Assembly (NCBI GenBank): GCA_038870455.1
Contig: JAWCPB010000014.1
Coordinates: 1-27,554 of the forward strand
Source of the DNA: Candidatus Micrarchaeia archaeon
GTDB lineage: Archaea > Micrarchaeota > Micrarchaeia > Burarchaeales > JACRGF01
Length of the DNA stretch: 27,554 nt
Reading direction: 5' to 3'
The notes beneath the pieces were generated by a model, which saw only the letters and a program-made list of their open reading frames with translations, did not search any database and was not told where the DNA came from. Position 1 is the stretch's first letter. Each line of letters starts with the position of its first letter. Positions 8,164 through 16,940 of the stretch are shown here, piece after piece. The translations under genes were made by a program, and so were the position numbers.

Positions 8164-8262
8164 GACCTTCCCCTCTCGAGGAGGGTCAGGAGGAACCTGG
8201 AACTGGGGAGGGGCGCAGCCCCTCCGCGGTTCGGCCCACTGGGGTTCGGTCCGCGGTTCGGT
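8164..8262 (+). ncRNA. Putative structured non-coding RNA or long structured leader of tRNA-Leu
   Basis: Non-coding and GC-rich with several stems (GACCTTC/GAGGGTC; GGAGGGGC-GCA-GCCCCTCC; GAACTG/CGGTTC; GAACC/GGTTC). Begins about 23 nt after TTAATTAA at 8134-8141. Confidence 0.4.
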
Positions 8263-8349
8263 GCGGGGGTGCCGGAGCATGGTCAATCGGGCAGGGCTTA
8301 GGACCCTGTGCGCTTAGGCGCTGCAAGAGTTCAAATCTCTTCCCCCGCA
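8263..8349 (+). tRNA. tRNA-Leu(TAG), intronless
   Basis: Acceptor GCGGGGG/CCCCCGC, anticodon arm CAGGG-CT TAG GA-CCCTG, long variable arm, T-arm AAGAG-TTCAAAT-CTCTT, discriminator A. Confidence 0.95.
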
Positions 8350-8387
8350 TGCGACAGTATTTAAAACAGGAATTCGATTGGACAGCG

Positions 8388-11300
8388 ATGCGAAAAGAAC
8401 TCGTGCTCGTCGTGCTGCTCGTGCTTCTATCGGGCTGTCTCGAGAGGCGCGAGCTCATCGCGCCCGAGAGGGAAGTGCTCGCGAACTGGACGAGCGGCGA
8501 TGCCGACGGGGACGGCGCGCCCGACTGGTTTTCCTTCTTTTTCGAGCCCTACAACATCACGCCGCAGATGAGCCTCGCGAGGAGGGTGCTCGTGGCGGGA
8601 GTCATTGAGCCGAGGAGGGAGGAGTTCAACTTCACCGAGTCTTTCTCCCTCGAGCCGGCAAGACTGGCTGAGACCAGGCGCCTTCTCGCGGCATTCAACG
8701 CCTCGCGCTTTTCCCCGACCCCGAACGGGCCGGCCGAGGCCGCCTGCAGGAGAGCCGGGGGCGTGGAACAGCCGTGCGCCGACCTCGCGGCCTGCAGGGC
8801 CGCCTGCTCGGCTTCCGGAGAGTGCGCCGCAAAGCTCGCGCTGTACGGCGATGTTCTCGCCCAGGCGCTGCTCGACTTTTCGCAGGCCTCGCACGGGCTT
8901 GACCGCGCTCTCGCCACGCTTTCCGCAGACCTTGACGCAGCGCAGGCGAGCCCGTCGCTCGCCAGGCTGAACAGGGTAGCGGGCGGTTTCGAGAGCGCGA
9001 AGGCTTTCGCCGCAGGGATTTCAACCACTTCGCTGGCCACCGCTTTCGGGCTGTGCGCGCCGGTTCCGGTGGGCCTCAACCTTCTTGAGGACGCCAGGAG
9101 GGCGTTCATCGCAAGCGTGCAGACAACAGGGGCTCTGCCGCCGCCTCCCACGCCCCGGCCTCCCGAGCGCTTTACTGTGCTCGTGCGCCTCACGCTCTCC
9201 ATGTCCGAGGGCTCTGCCTTCTCGGACCTCTCTCTCACCGAAGTCATTCCAAGGGAGTTTGCAGCAGACGCCTCTCAAATTGAATTCGGAGTGAATTACA
9301 CCGACATCTCGGCGCGGCCTCCCTTCGTGGTCACATGGAGGCACAGCAACGTCGGGGGGCGGGCGGGCGAGAGCGAGATCGCCTACCTCATCAAGAACGC
9401 GGGGGAGCCGAGGGAGGGCTGGCTGGAGTGGGCGCGGAGCCAGGCCAGCAGGCCCCAGCTCTCGCTCACGCGCCTGGAGCCCATGGCCTCGCCCGCGGTC
9501 GTTTTCGCCAAGGGCGTTTATTCGGGCGTGCTCTCCTTCTTCATTTCAGTCTCCAACTTTCACGTTGCCGTGGGCGTTGTCGCTGCACTCGCGCTGGTCG
9601 CGCTCTGGCTGCTGTGGAGCGGAGCCTCCTTCATTCTCGCCCTCGTGAATGCCGTGCGCACGAGGAAGGACCTCAAGGAGGCCGTTTACGCGTTCGCGGG
9701 CCACGGGAGCACGCAGACGCTCGCCTACCTGGCGATCGGCGTGGGCCTCACCCTGCTCGGGCTGGCTGTCATCCACCTCACCGCTCCGTTCCCGCAGCCT
9801 CTCACTGCAGAGAGCGACGTCCTGCAGGCGCTGAGCGCTGACTTCGCCAAGACGGCCGGCTCGCTCTCCATTTTCTTCGGCCTCATGTCCCTGTACTTCC
9901 TCATCGCCGACTTCTCCAAGGGCATTGTGCTGGGCAAGCGCTATTACGAGCGGCCGCTTCCGACTGGCGTGCGCGCCGTCATGTACGAGGCGCAGATTCT
10001 CGAGGCAGCCAAGGGCATGCGCGATTCCATCGAGCTGCTTCTCGAGCGGGCCCGGGAGCCGCGCAAGCAGGGTTTCGTCTTCGAGGCGGAGGAGAAGGCC
10101 GCGCGCAGCGCGCTCGCCATTCTCGACGCCTGCGAGGCCGCGTGCAAGGCGGCCAACCTCGCCCAGGCCAACATCGAGCTGCAGAGGGCGCGGGGCGCGG
10201 TCGAAAAGGCCAAGGCCGCGCTCGAGGCCAAGCTGGCCGCGCAGGAGAGGCTCTCAAGCCTTGCCGAGAAAGTGCAGAAGGCCGACAAGGCCGCGCGCTC
10301 GGCGCTCGAAGCGGCTGCAAAAATTGGCGTGGACATCCGAGAGGAGGAGAAGGCTCTCGGGGCCTCGCCTGCCAGCACCGCGCTCGAAGAGGCGAGAAGC
10401 GCATGGAGCGCGGACGACCTCGCCAAAGCAGAGAGGATTCTCGGAGAGAAGCTGGCCGAGCTGGAGGCGCTCTCAGAAGCCGCGGCGAAGAAGGGCGAAG
10501 AGCGCAAGCTTCTGCTGGGCAGGACGTTCCGCTGCCCGGAGTGCAGCCGCTCCATAAGCGTGGTGAGCGCCGTATGCCCCTACTGCAAGTCCGACGTGGC
10601 CGCCAAGATAAGGGAGAAGGCGGAGGAGCTGCGGAAGGCCATCGACAGGGACAGGAAGGAGCTCGAGCCGGCGCGCGCCTTCCTCGAGACGGCCGCGGAG
10701 GAAAAGACGCTGTCGGAAATAGAGGCCGCGCTGCCGGACATTCTCGACGCCGCCGGCCGCAGGGCCTTTGACGAGGCGACAAAGTCGCTCGAGGCCGAGG
10801 CCTCCCGCTACGACAAGGTCAAGCCTCTTCTGCGCGACAAGCTCGAGGCGTTCAAGGGCCTCACCGAGAGGCGCGGCATCCTCGAAAAGCGCGTTGACGT
10901 CATCCGGCACATGCTCGCCCAGGGAGCAAAACTGGGGCTGGACCTGAGCGCTGAGGAAAAAGAGTTCGGCTCGCTCGACCTCGAGGGCGCGGTGGCCAGG
11001 GTGCGCGAGCTGTTCAAGGCAGGAAAGTTCGCGGCCGCAGACGAGCTGCTCACCGCCACAGAAAACTCCTTCGAGAGGCTCGAGGCGCACACGGGCGACG
11101 TCATCGAGGACTTCCGCAACCAGTCGGACCGTCTCGCGCTCGCCGCAGCCTCGCTGAGCCGCATCGAGGAATCCGTCGCAAAGGCGAAGAAGGCCGGCCT
11201 CAGCGTGTGGAGGGAGGAGGCCGAGGCGAAGTCAATCAACCTCGAGAGGCTGCGCGCCGCGCTCAAGGCGCGCGAGCCGGTCGCAAAAGACATAGACGCC

Positions 11301-12170
11301 GCTGTCGAGAGGGTCGCCGCGATCGAGAAAAACACGGCGAGGAAGCTCGAGGCGTTTGAGGCGCTGGAGGCCAAGCTCGCCTCCCTGGAGAAGGAGATGA
11401 AGGAAGGCGATGTGCTGCTCAACAAGTGCCTTGTGGAGGGCATTGATGTGGGCGTCGAGCACGAGTCGCTGTACGCCATCGACCTGGACCGCCTGCGCGC
11501 ATCCCTCTCAGTCCTCGAGAGCGTCGAGGGCGTGCGCGCGCAGATAGAGGGCGCGCTCTCAGCTGCCGACGGCGCGCTGGCGAGCCTGCGTGAGAAGCTC
11601 GCCATGCTCGAGAACTGGAGCGCCTGGAGCGCGCACATCGCCTCCCTGCTGCGCAGGCAGGACACCATCACCGAGTCCATGCTCGTGGCCGTGCCCGAAA
11701 AGTGGAGGAAGTGGGCCATGGAGAAGTACCTGACAGAGCACCCTGCCGAAAGCTTTGTCATAGAGAACAATGCGCTCGTCCGCCTCAAGCCCGCGCCGGT
11801 GTCCAAGTTCCAGTTCGAGGTCATCCTACAGCGGCTCGTGGCCTCGCAGAAGATCGACGCCGCGGCTGTCGTGCGGCGGGACGGCCTCATGATAGCCAGC
11901 ACGCTGCCTCCTGCCATAAACTCAGAGACCATAGCGGCCATGGCCGCCCGCATCGCGTCGAAGTCCGAGATGGTCTCAGGCGAGCTCCGCCGCGGGCTCG
12001 TCAAGGACGTCATCATCGCCACGAAGGAGGGCAGGCTCGTGCTGCTCGCGGCCGGCCGCATGGCCATTCTCATAACATTGATAAAGCCGCAGGAAGACAT
12101 TGGGTTCGTGCTCATCACGATGGGCGAGGCGGCGAAGGAGATTGCCGCTCTGCTGGAGGGGAGGACCTGA
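8388..12170 (+). CDS. Giant (1260 aa) membrane protein: lipobox, Cys-rich ectodomain, 3-4 TM, helical-repeat rod with zinc ribbon, C-terminal Roadblock/LC7 (MglB-like) domain
   Basis: MRKELVLVVLLVLLSGC lipobox; DADGDGAPD Ca-binding-type motif; TM cluster at about 9500-9910; CPEC..CPYC; C-terminal AAAVVRRDGLMIAS.LP...ETIAAMAA is typical of Roadblock. TATTTAAA about 23 nt before ATG 8388. Confidence 0.9.
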   Translation: MRKELVLVVLLVLLSGCLERRELIAPEREVLANWTSGDADGDGAPDWFSFFFEPYNITPQMSLARRVLVAGVIEPRREEFNFTESFSLEPARLAETRRLLAAFNASRFSPTPNGPAEAACRRAGGVEQPCADLAACRAACSASGECAAKLALYGDVLAQALLDFSQASHGLDRALATLSADLDAAQASPSLARLNRVAGGFESAKAFAAGISTTSLATAFGLCAPVPVGLNLLEDARRAFIASVQTTGALPPPPTPRPPERFTVLVRLTLSMSEGSAFSDLSLTEVIPREFAADASQIEFGVNYTDISARPPFVVTWRHSNVGGRAGESEIAYLIKNAGEPREGWLEWARSQASRPQLSLTRLEPMASPAVVFAKGVYSGVLSFFISVSNFHVAVGVVAALALVALWLLWSGASFILALVNAVRTRKDLKEAVYAFAGHGSTQTLAYLAIGVGLTLLGLAVIHLTAPFPQPLTAESDVLQALSADFAKTAGSLSIFFGLMSLYFLIADFSKGIVLGKRYYERPLPTGVRAVMYEAQILEAAKGMRDSIELLLERAREPRKQGFVFEAEEKAARSALAILDACEAACKAANLAQANIELQRARGAVEKAKAALEAKLAAQERLSSLAEKVQKADKAARSALEAAAKIGVDIREEEKALGASPASTALEEARSAWSADDLAKAERILGEKLAELEALSEAAAKKGEERKLLLGRTFRCPECSRSISVVSAVCPYCKSDVAAKIREKAEELRKAIDRDRKELEPARAFLETAAEEKTLSEIEAALPDILDAAGRRAFDEATKSLEAEASRYDKVKPLLRDKLEAFKGLTERRGILEKRVDVIRHMLAQGAKLGLDLSAEEKEFGSLDLEGAVARVRELFKAGKFAAADELLTATENSFERLEAHTGDVIEDFRNQSDRLALAAASLSRIEESVAKAKKAGLSVWREEAEAKSINLERLRAALKAREPVAKDIDAAVERVAAIEKNTARKLEAFEALEAKLASLEKEMKEGDVLLNKCLVEGIDVGVEHESLYAIDLDRLRASLSVLESVEGVRAQIEGALSAADGALASLREKLAMLENWSAWSAHIASLLRRQDTITESMLVAVPEKWRKWAMEKYLTEHPAESFVIENNALVRLKPAPVSKFQFEVILQRLVASQKIDAAAVVRRDGLMIASTLPPAINSETIAAMAARIASKSEMVSGELRRGLVKDVIIATKEGRLVLLAAGRMAILITLIKPQEDIGFVLITMGEAAKEIAALLEGRT

Positions 12171-12181
12171 CGACCGAGGAG

Positions 12182-12622
12182 ATGCGGCGTGCTGCTGAAA
12201 AGGGCGAGCGCGCGTTTGCTGACGAGGGCAGGCTCAAGAAGGCGCGCGTCGTTTTCGGCTCGCTGCTCGCTTTCATTGAAGAGCCCCCGCAGGAGGGCTG
12301 GGAGTCAAGGCGCGAGGTGGAGGCCGCGCTGAGGAAGCTCGCCCGCCTTGCACCAGCCTCGGTTGAGGTGGCCAAGGAACTCATCCGCTCGGGCGGGCCG
12401 CGCGAGCGCCTCGCCGCCTGTCACGCCCTCGGCGAGCTGCGCGCGCCCGCAGGCGTGGCCGCGCTCATTCTCGCGCTCGAGGATGAGAAGGAGTGGGTGA
12501 GGGTGTGCGCCGGCCGCGCGCTGCGCAAGATAGAGGACAAGGAGGGGCTCATCGCCGCGCTGCTCGCCAAGAACACCGAGCTGCTGGCGCGCCTCGCGGC
12601 CTCGCTCGAAGGCAAAGGATAG
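12182..12622 (+). CDS. HEAT (PBS-lyase-type) repeat protein
   Basis: ERLAACHALGEL...GVAALILALEDEKEWVRVCAGRALRKI repeats; 11 nt downstream of the giant gene. Exact start uncertain. Confidence 0.8.
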   Translation: MRRAAEKGERAFADEGRLKKARVVFGSLLAFIEEPPQEGWESRREVEAALRKLARLAPASVEVAKELIRSGGPRERLAACHALGELRAPAGVAALILALEDEKEWVRVCAGRALRKIEDKEGLIAALLAKNTELLARLAASLEGKG

Positions 12623-12694
12623 CGGGGAGTGGATTTGAACCACCGATCTCTGGGTTATGAGCCCAGCGGGCACTCCAGGCTACCCTACCCCGCT
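12620..12694 (-). tRNA. Initiator tRNA-Met(CAT)
   Basis: Reverse complement AGCGGGGTAGGGTAGCCTGGAGTGCCCGCTGGGCTCATAACCCAGAGATCGGTGGTTCAAATCCACTCCCCGCTA. A1-U72 pair and three consecutive G-C pairs in the anticodon stem. Confidence 0.95.
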
Positions 12695-12753: not shown

Positions 12754-13233
12754 GTGAAGGGTTTTTTCAGTTTTTTCCTCGTTGTCGTCGCGCTGGGCGC
12801 GTTGTTCGCCGGCTCCCAGGCCTATCTCAAGAACCTGCAGACCACGCGCTCCGCCGAGTCGGAGCTCCTGCTCGTCGAGCGCGCGCACGCCGCAGAGATG
12901 GACGCCAAGCACGCGCTGCTGGACGGAATTCGCGAGAATGCGCGCGGTAGTGATGGCAGGAACACTGAAGAAATTTCGTTTGGCCTGGCGGCAAGATTTC
13001 AAGCGCTCGAGGCCGAAGTGGGAAAAGGTGGTTTCCATGGCTTTAATGCGTCGCTGTGGTGTGGAGTCAAGGGCGCGTCCCTTGCCGTGTGCGCTAACCC
13101 TCTCTCAATCGCGGTCATAACCCAGCAACGCAGCGTATTCATCACGACAGACATCATCCTCAACCTCCGCGACGAGCGTGCAAACGCTTCCTTCACCTCC
13201 TTCATTCCGGCCGGAACGGTGGTGTGGTATTGA
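12754..13233 (+). CDS. Pilin-like protein with a class III signal peptide
   Basis: MKG-FFSFFLVVVALGALF: basic residue and Gly followed by a hydrophobic helix. First of four overlapping ORFs. Confidence 0.65.
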   Translation: MKGFFSFFLVVVALGALFAGSQAYLKNLQTTRSAESELLLVERAHAAEMDAKHALLDGIRENARGSDGRNTEEISFGLAARFQALEAEVGKGGFHGFNASLWCGVKGASLAVCANPLSIAVITQQRSVFITTDIILNLRDERANASFTSFIPAGTVVWY

Positions 13234-13553
13234 GAGGACAGGTTTCGGTCGAGGCTCTGGTTGTTCTTGCGGCCTATCTTGTCCTTCTCTTTCTCCTGGT
13301 GAGCGGCCTGAGCGCGAGCGCGGCAAGCCTTTCGGAAAAGCACGCTCTGCTGGAGGCGAAGGCCCTGTCCATCCGAGCCGCAGCCTTTCAGGACGCGCTG
13401 GCGGCCAACGCCCGCGAGGCCTCCCACTCGTTTGACTTCGGAAACTGCACGCTGCCAGTGACCGAGGTCAGCTGCTATGTAAGGGGACAGGCCGCCTCAA
13501 CAAGAGTGCTTGGTGTGCTGAATGCGAGCATGTACTTTCTTCAAAAAGTGTAA
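13224..13553 (+). CDS. Pilin-like protein with a class III signal peptide
   Basis: RG-QVSVEALVVL matches the archaeal (K/R)GQxSxE prepilin motif. Start is GTG 13224 or TTG 13230. Confidence 0.8.
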   Translation: MVLRGQVSVEALVVLAAYLVLLFLLVSGLSASAASLSEKHALLEAKALSIRAAAFQDALAANAREASHSFDFGNCTLPVTEVSCYVRGQAASTRVLGVLNASMYFLQKV

Positions 13554-13923
13554 GGGCGCGCTGTTCGCGAGCGACGCGCTGCTCGCCTGCCTAGCCGTCC
13601 TGCTGCTGCTCCACATCCTCTCCGCCGTTCTGTTTCTATTCTACGAGCGCTCGGCGGCGTCGATACAGAGCTGGGAGGAGGAGGCGCTGCTGCTGTCTAT
13701 CGCCGACCGCCTCGTCAAGGCAGAGGCTGTCGAGAGCGAGACGCTGCCGCCGGTCGTTCATCCCAACGTGATTGACAGGGCCAAGCTGGCCGCATTAAAG
13801 GACAGGCTCTCCGGTTTCAACGTCACCGCGGGCCTTGAAAGCGAAGGGAGAGCGAGCGGCCGCTGCATTCGCCGCATAGTCCTCGTTTCCGGTGAGGTGG
13901 ATGCGCTTGTCGTGTGCAGGTAA
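13522..13923 (+). CDS. Pilin-like protein with a class III signal peptide
   Basis: KG-ALFASDALLACLAVLLL followed by a long N-terminal helix. Confidence 0.7.
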   Translation: MRACTFFKKCKGALFASDALLACLAVLLLLHILSAVLFLFYERSAASIQSWEEEALLLSIADRLVKAEAVESETLPPVVHPNVIDRAKLAALKDRLSGFNVTAGLESEGRASGRCIRRIVLVSGEVDALVVCR

Positions 13924-14308
13924 GGGTTTCGCGCTCACGCTCGAAGCCCTGCTCAGCATTTTCCTGGCCACCGCGCTCGTCGTTCCCTTTCTTTCGCTCA
14001 CCCAGGGCGCGCTCGCACGGAAGCACGCCTTTCTCCACGACAGCCAGCTTCTTGATGACGCCGTTGAAGCCGCGCACGGGCTGGGCGTTTTTGAAGACCT
14101 CGCGGCCGGCAGAGGGGAGGATGCCGAGGCAAAGCTCGGCAAAATCTCGGACAGACTGGGCGCCTGCCTCCGTGTCAGCACGGGCGCGTGGTCGCGCGCG
14201 TTCCGGTGCGGGGGAAGTTCGACGCGGAAAATCACTACCACCCGCCTGCTCGCCCGCAACGGCACGGGCAGCGGGTACGAAACGATCTCGTTCGTTCTCG
14301 AGAGATGA
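13901..14308 (+). CDS. Pilin-like protein with a class III signal peptide
   Basis: KG-FALTLEALLSIFLA; SD-like GGTGAGGTG just before ATG 13901. Confidence 0.7.
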   Translation: MRLSCAGKGFALTLEALLSIFLATALVVPFLSLTQGALARKHAFLHDSQLLDDAVEAAHGLGVFEDLAAGRGEDAEAKLGKISDRLGACLRVSTGAWSRAFRCGGSSTRKITTTRLLARNGTGSGYETISFVLER

Positions 14309-14987: not shown

Positions 14988-15692
14988 GTGCTGAAAAGCC
15001 TTCTGCTCGCGCTGGGGATGAGCGTCGTGCTGTCTTCCGCAGAAGAAGTTTCTTTTTCTGTCACCGTGACCGACGCGCCCACGACGCTGTTCCAGCAGGC
15101 CGTGCCCTCCTCGCTGTCCTCGCCAGGCTGGGTTTCGCTCGCCTGCGGCTACCGGTACGAAGGCGGAACGGTGCCCAACGGAAGGTGCAGCATTCTCGTG
15201 GATTCCTCTTCCTACGACGCAGCCCCGCCGGCCTTCGCGCGCTCTGTGTTCCTGTCCGCGGGCAACCACTCGTGGAGGTGTGATTGTAGCGCCGATGGCT
15301 TCGCCCCGCAGTCCGGTCAGCCGCAGAGGATTGAGGTGGGGAGCGCCCAGCCCTCTCCCTCTCCTGAAGAGCGCGCGCTGGCGCTCCAGCTCGTCGCTGA
15401 GGCGAACGACAGCGTGGCGAGGGCGAGGGAGAGCGGGCTCGACACAGAGGAGGCTGAGGGTTACGTGAGGCTCGCCGCGCTCGCTCTCGCCCAGAACGAC
15501 ACGGTCAGGGCGAGCTCGTTTGCGGTGAGCGCCAAGACGGTCGCGGCCGGCGCGCCCCCGAAGTCCGCGGTGTTTGTGCTCGAGTCCTTCAGCCGGGTGG
15601 CCGCGCCCGCCATAACCATCGCGGCCCTCGCCATCGTCATCGCCTCGCTGTACTTCTTCAGGACTTACTTGAGGAATAGAGAGGCGGGCTAG
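14988..15692 (+). CDS. Secreted, C-terminally anchored hypothetical protein
   Basis: Signal peptide, beta-rich domain with four Cys, helical bundle (ARARESGLDTEEAE) and a C-terminal TM with a basic tail. Confidence 0.75.
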   Translation: MLKSLLLALGMSVVLSSAEEVSFSVTVTDAPTTLFQQAVPSSLSSPGWVSLACGYRYEGGTVPNGRCSILVDSSSYDAAPPAFARSVFLSAGNHSWRCDCSADGFAPQSGQPQRIEVGSAQPSPSPEERALALQLVAEANDSVARARESGLDTEEAEGYVRLAALALAQNDTVRASSFAVSAKTVAAGAPPKSAVFVLESFSRVAAPAITIAALAIVIASLYFFRTYLRNREAG

Positions 15693-15991
15693 GCAAAAAC
15701 AGTGTTGCACACCGGGCACTGGTTCATCCTGTACTTGGCTTCATAGCCGCACACCGGGCACTTGAAAGTCTGCTCTGTCTCGGTGAAGCTCTTTCCGCAG
15801 TGCGGGCAGATTTTCGCGTTCCAGGGGATTTCCTTCTTGCAGTTCGGGCAGGTTATCTTGAACATCTCGCTGACTTTGGCGTGGCAGGTGGGGCACTCCT
15901 CGCTTCCTTCGGGGATGTAGCCCTTGCAGCGCAGGCACCACAGTCCCCTCGTCGTTTCCTTTTTCCCGAGCAGGAGGTCGAGTATTCCCAT
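15689..15991 (-). CDS. Triple zinc-ribbon (DZR-like) protein
   Basis: Six CxxC motifs in three repeats of about 29 aa; N-terminus MGILDLLLGKK. Confidence 0.85.
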   Translation of the reverse strand: MGILDLLLGKKETTRGLWCLRCKGYIPEGSEECPTCHAKVSEMFKITCPNCKKEIPWNAKICPHCGKSFTETEQTFKCPVCGYEAKYRMNQCPVCNTVFA

Positions 15992-15992
15992 G

Positions 15993-16940
15993 CTATCGCC
16001 TTAGTGCGGCGAAGAGAGCCAGCGCGAGGAGGGCGAACAGCCCGCACGGCCTCTGCGGAGCCGGGGGCGCGGTGGCGTTCGCGGTCGTGACGTTTCCGGT
16101 GATGTTTCCGCCTATGGCGATGTTCGCCACCCTCTTGACGCACGAGCAGTCTGGGAACGGCTTCTGTTCCTCGTCTGGAAGGCAGGCGTTCGCGCAGCTC
16201 ACGTTCTCGGTCACGTTCGGCGTTGTGACGGTGATGTTGTCGCTCGCACGGCAGTCAGCCAGCCTGGCTTCAGCGAGCGAGAGCGCGGCCTGCGCGTGCT
16301 GCGCTGCAAGGCCCGCTTGGCTCGTCGCGTTCGCCACCTCGCATGCGGCGAGCGCGCCCGCGGCTTTTGCCAGGGAGGAACTCACGGCGGCGAGCTCAGC
16401 CTCGCCGGCTCCGGCGCAGCAAGGGCCGCAGCCAGCGAGCACGGCCTTCGCCTGTTCGGCGGTCGCATTCGCGCCCGCCATGTTCAAAACAACCCCCTCC
16501 TCAACAGGGTCTGGCTGGTGAATTATTTTGAAAACGAATTCCTTCGCGTAGCTGATTCCCTGGCACTCGGAGGTCAGGCGGAGGAGCTTGACCTCGACCT
16601 CGCCTCTCCCAGTTCCGCCAAGCTTTACGGGCACAGTCGCCCTGCAGTTGGCGGCAGGCGGGACTATGCACAACTGTCCTCCGGGCACGAAACCCCTCTG
16701 GTCGAAGTCGTACCTCTCGTAATACACCACGAACGCTTCCGTGCACTGGGCCGGCCTGGCCACGTCGAACTCTATCCTGGGCGGCGCCTGGGTGGGCAGC
16801 CTGCAGTTGTACACGCTGAGCGCGTCGGTTCCACTCAGCGTGGCCGCCCCGCTCACGCCGATGACGACAGCATCGAACTCCTCGACTGCGAGGACTGGCA
16901 GGGCGAGGAGCGCAAGGGCAAAAAGCGCAAGCACTCGCAT
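15993..16940 (-). CDS. Cys-rich secreted glycoprotein with a C-terminal Cys/hydrophobic/RR sorting-like signal
   Basis: Signal peptide MRVLALFALALLALPVLA, many N-x-T/S sequons, and tail PCGLFALLALALFAALRR. Confidence 0.8.
   Translation of the reverse strand: MRVLALFALALLALPVLAVEEFDAVVIGVSGAATLSGTDALSVYNCRLPTQAPPRIEFDVARPAQCTEAFVVYYERYDFDQRGFVPGGQLCIVPPAANCRATVPVKLGGTGRGEVEVKLLRLTSECQGISYAKEFVFKIIHQPDPVEEGVVLNMAGANATAEQAKAVLAGCGPCCAGAGEAELAAVSSSLAKAAGALAACEVANATSQAGLAAQHAQAALSLAEARLADCRASDNITVTTPNVTENVSCANACLPDEEQKPFPDCSCVKRVANIAIGGNITGNVTTANATAPPAPQRPCGLFALLALALFAALRR

Follow-up and report, generated by a model that had tools for sequence, protein, structure and literature searches.

A 27,554-nucleotide stretch of DNA from a Candidatus Micrarchaeia archaeon (GenBank assembly GCA_038870455.1, contig JAWCPB010000014.1; the whole stretch is called the window below) carries, at 8388-12170 on the forward strand, a gene for a real 1260-residue membrane protein, here called the giant, that joins an ectodomain and a helical-repeat stalk to an inside Roadblock domain of the MglB type. 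Roadblock/MglB proteins are known as small soluble partners of small GTPases, whereas the one described here is built into a membrane protein together with an extracellular domain. Stated most safely, and in structural terms, the protein is a stalk that crosses the membrane and carries a Trp-rich domain and the Roadblock domain at a lineage-specific depth below it. We favour, at a probability of roughly 0.4, the more specific reading that the protein is a lineage-specific membrane adaptor of Micrarchaeia (DPANN archaea), acting from outside to inside and offering its Roadblock to partners as a platform for docking, a set distance beneath the membrane. New in this account are the rod repeats, the topology statistics, an Asp-Gly (DG) pair in the Roadblock domain, an operon encoding a KaiC-GTPase fusion, and limits on the co-occurrence of that fusion with the membrane protein.

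Conservation was assessed in alignment A1, of 31 C-terminal modules, and alignment A2, of the N-terminal parts of 32 family members; the genome sample comprised 201 genomes of the class, and the codes f, G and L denote families, genomes and loci. The C-terminal domain, read as a Roadblock in an earlier note made by a model from the letters of this DNA, matched Pfam Robl_LC7 (PF03259) at residues 1144-1229 (E 1.9e-13, 50.4 bits against a cut-off of 23), and a whole-genome profile scan also recovered it. In the AlphaFold2 (AF2) model of residues 985-1260 (predicted local distance difference test, pLDDT, 91.9) it adopts the alpha-beta-beta-alpha-beta-beta-beta(-alpha) sandwich of Roadblock domains, with helices at 156-168, 195-215 and 254-273 and strands at 172-179, 184-187, 223-227, 232-238 and 242-248 (model numbering). 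Against the Asgard Roadblock 9jue, Foldseek gave E 1.1e-12, TMt 0.94 and 32% identity, and VIA gave Z 22.1 with a root-mean-square deviation (rmsd) of 1.0 over 119 residues; VIA scores were Z 19.2 and 18.6 for MglB (6hjm and 3t1r), Z 12-16.5 for Ragulator subunits and Z 10-11 for dynein LC7. Passages in Wuichet and Sogaard-Andersen (2014; PMC4316618) describe MglBs coupled to GTPGQ-type MglA as conserving little beyond an Asp-Gly pair, which faces MglA; the giant has this mark of a partner of GTPGQ-type MglA (groups 2-5) in D1165-G1166, and the pair (within RRDGLMIAS) is kept in 25 of the 31 aligned members. Assignment of the fused domain to the MglB type is supported, because its fold scores 19.2 against MglB and 22.1 against the Asgard Roadblock and the Asp-Gly pair is conserved. 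When 22 fused and 13 stand-alone domains were placed in one tree, a single branch (support 78/98, present in 80% of bootstrap trees) separated the two groups, which is compatible with a single capture of the Roadblock domain.

Between rod and Roadblock, AF2 placed a small strand-helix-strand-strand domain (block pLDDT 82-96) that corresponds to the Trp-rich element noticed earlier (WSAW...VPEKWRKWAMEKYL, residues 1077-1115). W1080, P1103, W1106, R1107 and the D1165-G1166 pair were each at least 90% conserved in A1, and the Trp-rich motif was kept in 28 of its 31 modules, degenerate-Roadblock members included, and was missing from three f8 proteins. No match to this domain was found in Pfam, or in the ESM Atlas queried with residues 1060-1145. 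The family's forms of about 760 residues gave no Pfam Roadblock match, and some of these forms no longer have the DG pair.

The long helical rod containing a zinc-ribbon motif, another element of the earlier note, was located at about residues 526-1090, its first helix spanning 526-556 in the AF2 model of residues 1-560 (pLDDT 89.3, predicted TM-score 0.73). Segments near residues 561, 647, 753, 850, 937 and 1018 share the pattern KL.EAF..L ... G[LIV]D[VL]..EE; an iterated hidden Markov model (HMM) found repeats at 615-671, 817-875, 905-958 and 985-1037, with two weaker copies near 561 and 753. Among relatives the HMM counted between 0 and 7 repeats: zero in most forms of about 600 residues, one in most of 650-830 residues, three or four in those of 895-1264 residues and three in those of 1643-1763 residues. 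Because this copy number tracks protein length, length variation in the family is at least partly a matter of gain and loss of repeat units. The last repeat was modelled as a helix (2-32), two short helices (38-58) and a further helix (62-106, model numbering), and VIA aligned it to a designed antiparallel three-helix bundle with Z 12.2 and rmsd 1.4 over 85 residues (model residues 2-86), a score below the helical-fold level of about Z 13 and hence only suggestive. Like spectrin-type rods, the giant's rod has tandem units of about 85-100 residues, with three antiparallel helices in the one repeat modelled, and a variable copy number; it differs from them in having no sequence relation, and the Z of 12.2 lies below the level that separates true helical relatives. 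If six 30-residue three-helix units were laid end to end, we estimate that the rod would measure about 20-27 nm.

Pfam zinc-ribbon matches within the rod, at 713-746, fell below threshold, and the pattern C..C-x10-C..C is kept in 17 of 32 relatives, namely all forms with at least three repeats except one of 1720 residues. That relative (P0006, locus L020 4983-10145, forward strand) has seven rod repeats and neither a zinc ribbon nor a Pfam Roadblock match. In a 1763-residue relative (locus L017 4992-10283, reverse strand) zinc ribbons occur at 679, 952 and 1226, and this spacing of 273-274 residues would imply a three-copy super-repeat of about 273 residues.

Hydropathy alone gave hydrophobic helices at 391-423, 442-469 and 489-513. 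In the family average the loop after the first transmembrane (TM) helix is basic (K+R 5.1 vs D+E 2.8), that after the second acidic (K+R 1.2 vs D+E 3.0) and the stretch after the third mildly basic (K+R 4.4 vs D+E 3.6). The cytoplasmic loop of the module is conserved (AG.G), the motif D..KG..LG.RY follows TM3, and G438, G498 and K511 are nearly invariant in A2. Where the earlier note allowed three or four TM helices, three are supported and a fourth, at 369-388, was rejected, its family mean hydropathy being 0.78 and its end lying merely two residues before TM1. The N-out/C-in orientation predicted from these data, with rod and Roadblock in the cytoplasm, is supported because it agrees with the lipoprotein N-terminus, the N-x-S/T sequons (five of seven within residues 33-303), the conserved six-cysteine pattern and the loop charges, as the earlier proposal of a one-chain transmembrane protein had it.

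A lipobox comprises a hydrophobic signal followed by [LVI][ASTG][GAS]C. As claimed earlier, the giant has such a motif, a hydrophobic signal and then LLSG-C17, with G16 and C17 nearly invariant in the 32 N-terminal parts, and lipid attachment is predicted from sequence. The other two ectodomain features of the earlier note were also recovered: the DxDxDG motif is DADGDG at residues 38-43, D38 being nearly invariant in A2, and the Cys-rich character comes from six cysteines at 120, 130, 136, 140, 146 and 223, a pattern kept in 20 of the 32 members. These cysteines lie in a helical insert (90-243 in the AF2 model) modelled as a disulfide-type four-helix bundle of a common kind, which is missing in short family forms. 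Foldseek comparison of the N-terminal model with the PDB gave no match at E<=0.001, the top rows (TM-score about 0.1, rmsd about 20 Å) being noise, and an ESM Atlas search with residues 18-545 gave no usable match. VIA-wide matched the insert only, matches to the beta-sandwich (Z about 7) being not interpretable; as relatives of the insert, the ligand-binding domain of the chemoreceptor McpZ (Z 10.2) and pectin methylesterase inhibitor (Z 10.0) were rejected, as both scores fall under the level of helical-bundle noise. Two proteins of f6 (loci L012 1483-4170 and L013 1480-4185, both on the reverse strand) have neither signal peptide nor ectodomain, their first element being the amphipathic helix that precedes TM1; their Roadblock has RG in place of DG.

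The open frame at 8349-12170 on the forward strand is a single open reading frame (ORF) in the window. Its translation from the 8388 ATG, MRKELVLVVLLVLLSGC, agrees with the N-termini of orthologs, and the upstream 8349 ATG overlaps the tRNA-Leu(TAG) gene (8262-8350) that lies immediately upstream; for these reasons 8388 is the likely start. The window has a G+C content of about 62%, and the source genome (1.04 Mb in 51 contigs) is rated 90% complete. The nearest database protein, 80% identical, is named roadblock/LC7 domain-containing protein of Candidatus Micrarchaeia; a word-indexed homolog search with the whole protein, and another with residues 1070-1260, returned only the giant itself and one 80% relative, and NCBIfam models run over the 1260 residues gave nothing close to their cut-offs.

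With residues 21-551 as query, HMMER retrieved 45 representative clusters (E<=1e-3) among 1.84 billion proteins, a narrow and uncharacterised family; 15 of these 45 relatives of the ectodomain-TM module carry Robl_LC7 above the Pfam cut-off, always C-terminally, and one more below it. In other genomes, 31 homologous ORFs align with the giant end to end or module by module in conserved domain order, full-length matches including G012 (81% identity over 1-1260), G036 (34% over 6-1256) and members of f14. In a different assembly, made from a public run, a contig of 4297 bases matches 8205-12501 without differences; that run may be the source sample, which makes this a second assembly and not second data. 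Short joints in sequencing-run data, with sides of 20-24 letters, were discarded as stray matches, and no RNA data set was listed among the runs containing this DNA. Because the architecture recurs in independent genomes and is narrow in 1.84 billion proteins, it is genuine and lineage-specific, and the assembly artefact that the earlier note had guarded against did not materialise. Nor did a full-text literature search yield a paper describing a protein so built, and no characterised protein is known to have this architecture.

Matches to the giant were found in 78 of the 201 genomes, at least 73 of them with a match that falls in an open frame of 385 residues or more; for the other five, the matches listed contained only the stand-alone Roadblock or nothing. 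The family was found in f1, f3-f9, f12, f14, f22 (27/27), f25 (6/6) and others, and was not found in f2 (0/10), f10 (0/8), f13 (0/31), f15 (0/21), f17 (0/20), f18 (0/8) or f24 (0/5).

As the earlier note stated, the window encodes no GTPase: no GTPase family matched among its 40 ORFs scanned. The search of the genome for GTPases and other Roadblocks that it proposed gave one MglA-type GTPase and one further Roadblock; both, however, lie on contig C8, where the GTPase has its own Roadblock. This GTPase, the only clear Ras-like one of the genome, is fused to a KaiC-like domain (419 residues in all), and its G domain, the last 170 residues, has the invariant GTPGQ motif and a TT pair in the G2 region, which parts of PMC4316618 give as marks of MglA groups 2-5. 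Within the operon the stand-alone Roadblock gene lies at C8 15415-15792. Five pilin-like genes follow the operon, and next, on the opposite strand, come a further pilin-like gene, whose product bears a class III signal (Pfam match below cut-off), an amidohydrolase gene, two T2SSF genes and a T2SSE ATPase gene; passages in Makarova et al. (2016) report Roadblock (arCOG02603) and KaiC proteins in archaeal type IV pilus loci. A canonical Walker A motif (GEAGCGKS) was seen only in the third KaiC-like domain of the operon (C8 13352-16766 was inspected), and the fused KaiC (SGVPGIDAR) and the second (GPPGTEKF) look degenerate by eye. A literature search found no paper on an archaeal KaiC-MglA fusion. 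Over the G domain the fusion is 54-95% identical to proteins of 19 other genomes of the class, which makes 20 of 201 (E<=1e-8). All 20 are among the 78 genomes with matches to the giant (in G189 only the stand-alone Roadblock is among the matches listed), and 58 of the 78 are without a GTPase match; many sampled genomes are incomplete.

In the adaptor reading, the protein would work as a dimer, as Roadblock domains do, with the ectodomain sensing or binding something at the cell surface, the rod serving as a spacer with the number of repeats fixing its length, and the Trp-rich domain coupling rod to Roadblock. The terminal Roadblock would be the docking platform for the KaiC-fused MglA-like GTPase, for the stand-alone Roadblock or for both, in genomes that have them. 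As the genes of the KaiC-MglA-like module form part of the type IV pilus locus or adjoin it, a site at the surface would be tied to a pili-controlling switch. In favour of the reading count the conserved domain order, the topology, the confident models, the Roadblock fold, the DG pair and its distribution, the GTPGQ-type GTPase with its pilus-linked operon, and the pilin-like sets near the gene in seven of 32 loci. If docking of this kind is true, the protein would connect the cell surface to a G-protein/KaiC switch beside pilus genes by a testable route, and would be an example of a stalk whose length evolves by gain and loss of repeats.

Several results weigh against this reading. The GTPase was found in only 20 of the 201 genomes against at least 73 for the membrane protein, and is therefore not its universal partner; of the earlier idea of a GTPase-regulating module, the MglB-type Roadblock and a GTPase in the genome stand, and regulation as the family's general role does not. 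The search at E<=1e-8 yielded no GTPase in f6, f22, f25 or seven of the nine f12 genomes. Across five of these genomes the Pfam Ras profile had a single match just above cut-off (22 bits, in a 590-residue frame), its remaining matches being below cut-off and nearly all in long frames; nor was Robl_LC7 found in the f22 and f25 genomes scanned by Pfam. A stand-alone Roadblock adjoins the GTPase in nine of 15 other loci, so that the GTPase already has a cognate Roadblock, and a second KaiC gene adjoins it in 12 of the 15. The Trp-rich domain persists where the Roadblock is undetected and, in part, where DG is lost, and the conserved core function may therefore not need a GTPase. Finally, neighbourhood clustering gave no partner conserved family-wide, conservation being within sub-clades only. 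A complex prediction with two Roadblock copies and the G domain (score 0.00, mark 0.32) is evidence neither way.

Much of this would suit a structural tether independent of GTPases, somewhat less probable in our judgement than the adaptor, in which the Roadblock is a knob for dimerisation or for docking another cytoplasmic partner and the rod is a ruler. Roadblocks act as such knobs in dynein LC7 and LAMTOR. Many genomes carry the family although no MglA-like GTPase was found in them, which fits a tether, as do the Trp-rich domain, and not the Roadblock, being the most conserved cytoplasmic element, and a repeat number that varies from 0 to 7 between lineages, as a spacer might; the f6 members without ectodomain count against an obligatory sensor. 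However, all 18 aligned members whose genomes have the GTPase retain the DG pair, against seven of the 13 from other genomes (a trend and not a test, kin not being independent), the fused domain and the genome's stand-alone, GTPase-linked Roadblock share 47% identity, and the neighbourhood offers a tether no conserved alternative partner.

The adaptor can also be given a fuller form, as a single-chain receptor in which a lipid-anchored ectodomain passes surface or host contact along a stalk tuned by its repeats to an MglB-type Roadblock that recruits or regulates the KaiC-MglA-like GTPase and so positions type IV pili. These archaea live attached to other archaea and have very few signalling proteins, and if true this would give archaea their own version of G-protein polarity control, one with the membrane receptor built in; we consider this full chain of steps unlikely. 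The same system can be set beside known ones. MglB is the Roadblock GTPase-activating protein of MglA. MglB of Myxococcus and Thermus and the archaeal or Asgard stand-alone Roadblocks (PDB 9jue, 7f8m, 7yh1; arCOG02603) share with the giant's domain the fold, including the C-terminal helix, the Robl_LC7 match and the Asp-Gly pair, and the genome has a paralog of it that neighbours a GTPGQ-type GTPase at a type IV pilus locus. They are, however, soluble proteins of about 120-160 residues, whereas here the domain forms the last 10% of a 1260-residue lipobox membrane protein and, unlike in MglB-type coupling, is not encoded adjacent to a GTPase: the genome's only MglA-like gene lies on C8 by the stand-alone Roadblock. 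Ragulator/LAMTOR and the C-terminal Roadblocks of Rag proteins are alike in being membrane-held Roadblock dimers that dock GTPases, with the structural similarity given above, but LAMTOR is tethered by a separate lipidated subunit and has no ectodomain, TM helices or repeat rod. The Streptomyces conservon, as outlined in parts of PMC4316618, consists of a membrane sensor kinase (CvnA), a Roadblock (CvnB), CvnC and a GTPase (CvnD), and shares the logic of membrane sensor, Roadblock and MglA-family GTPase; it uses four separate proteins and a histidine-kinase-like sensor, whereas in the present case a single chain combines sensor and Roadblock, and the GTPase has a KaiC-like domain as its fusion partner. 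Neither Pfam nor NCBIfam found a histidine-kinase or ATPase domain of the CvnA type in the giant's 1260 residues.

Directly downstream of the giant in the window stand four pilin-like genes, and the ectodomain might anchor or nucleate a fibre of their products, with the stalk linking it to the interior; we hold such a role in a pilin filament to be rather improbable. Four-gene sets of this kind adjoin the homolog in seven of 32 loci (window included) from three families, directly downstream in the window, G012, G036 and G059 and convergent in G009, G021 and G045, and two f14 loci have one or two ORFs of pilin-like type upstream. On the other side, seven of 32 is a small share, three of the loci ending too near the gene to tell; the f6, f22 and f25 loci and most f14 loci showed none. 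Among the 40 window ORFs scanned, no assembly ATPase or TadC was found near the giant, and the pilin-like genes, called from their N-terminal patterns, had no Pfam match. That the long ORF fuses separate genes through an error of assembly or annotation can be set aside, as nothing was found in its favour and the end-to-end relatives (G012, G036, f14) and the second assembly speak against it.

Table 1. Features of the giant's gene, its neighbours and the C8 operon (positions in the window unless a contig or locus is named)
Feature	Position	Strand	Basis
Signal peptide ending in lipobox LLSGC (Cys17)	8388..8438	+	translation, hydropathy, family conservation
Ectodomain, residues 18-365, beta-sandwich (19-88 and 244-363) with DADGDG	8439..9482	+	AF2
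Inserted four-helix, six-Cys domain, residues 89-246	8652-9125	+	AF2; Cys pattern
Membrane module: amphipathic helix 369-388; predicted TM helices 391-424, 444-464, 486-515	9492..9932	+	AF2 helices, family hydropathy, loop charges
Helical rod of tandem repeats (predicted cytoplasmic), residues 526-1090	9963..11657	+	repeat alignment, iterated HMM
Zinc ribbon CPEC-x10-CPYC inside rod, residues 716-733	10533..10586	+	motif; sub-threshold Pfam DZR/UPF0547
Trp-rich small alpha/beta domain, residues 1077-1135, WSAW...IP..WR.WA...Y..EH	11616..11792	+	conservation, AF2
Roadblock/LC7 domain, MglB type, residues 1140-1257, D1165-G1166	11805..12158	+	Pfam, Foldseek, VIA
HEAT-repeat gene, 146 residues	12182..12622	+	Pfam HEAT_2 E 3.5e-7; start mapping
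Four overlapping small genes with class-III-signal-like (type IV pilin-like) N-termini (RGQVSVEAL, KGFALTLEAL)	12754..14308	+	translations
C8 operon (KaiC-GTPase fusion, KaiC-like, Roadblock of 125 residues, third KaiC-like), then pilin-like, two T2SSF and T2SSE ATPase genes	C8 13352-25265 (L035 4353-16266)		

The HEAT-repeat gene starts 11 nt past the giant's stop codon, behind GAGGAG, and is probably co-transcribed with it; it is kept downstream only in the same-genus relative. Between this gene and the pilin-like genes a tRNA-Met(CAT) gene lies on the opposite strand (12620-12694). Further downstream, 14988-15692 (forward strand) and 15993-16940 (reverse strand, Cys-rich) encode predicted secreted proteins with a C-terminal hydrophobic anchor, and between them 15689-15991 (reverse strand) encodes a double zinc ribbon protein of 100 residues.

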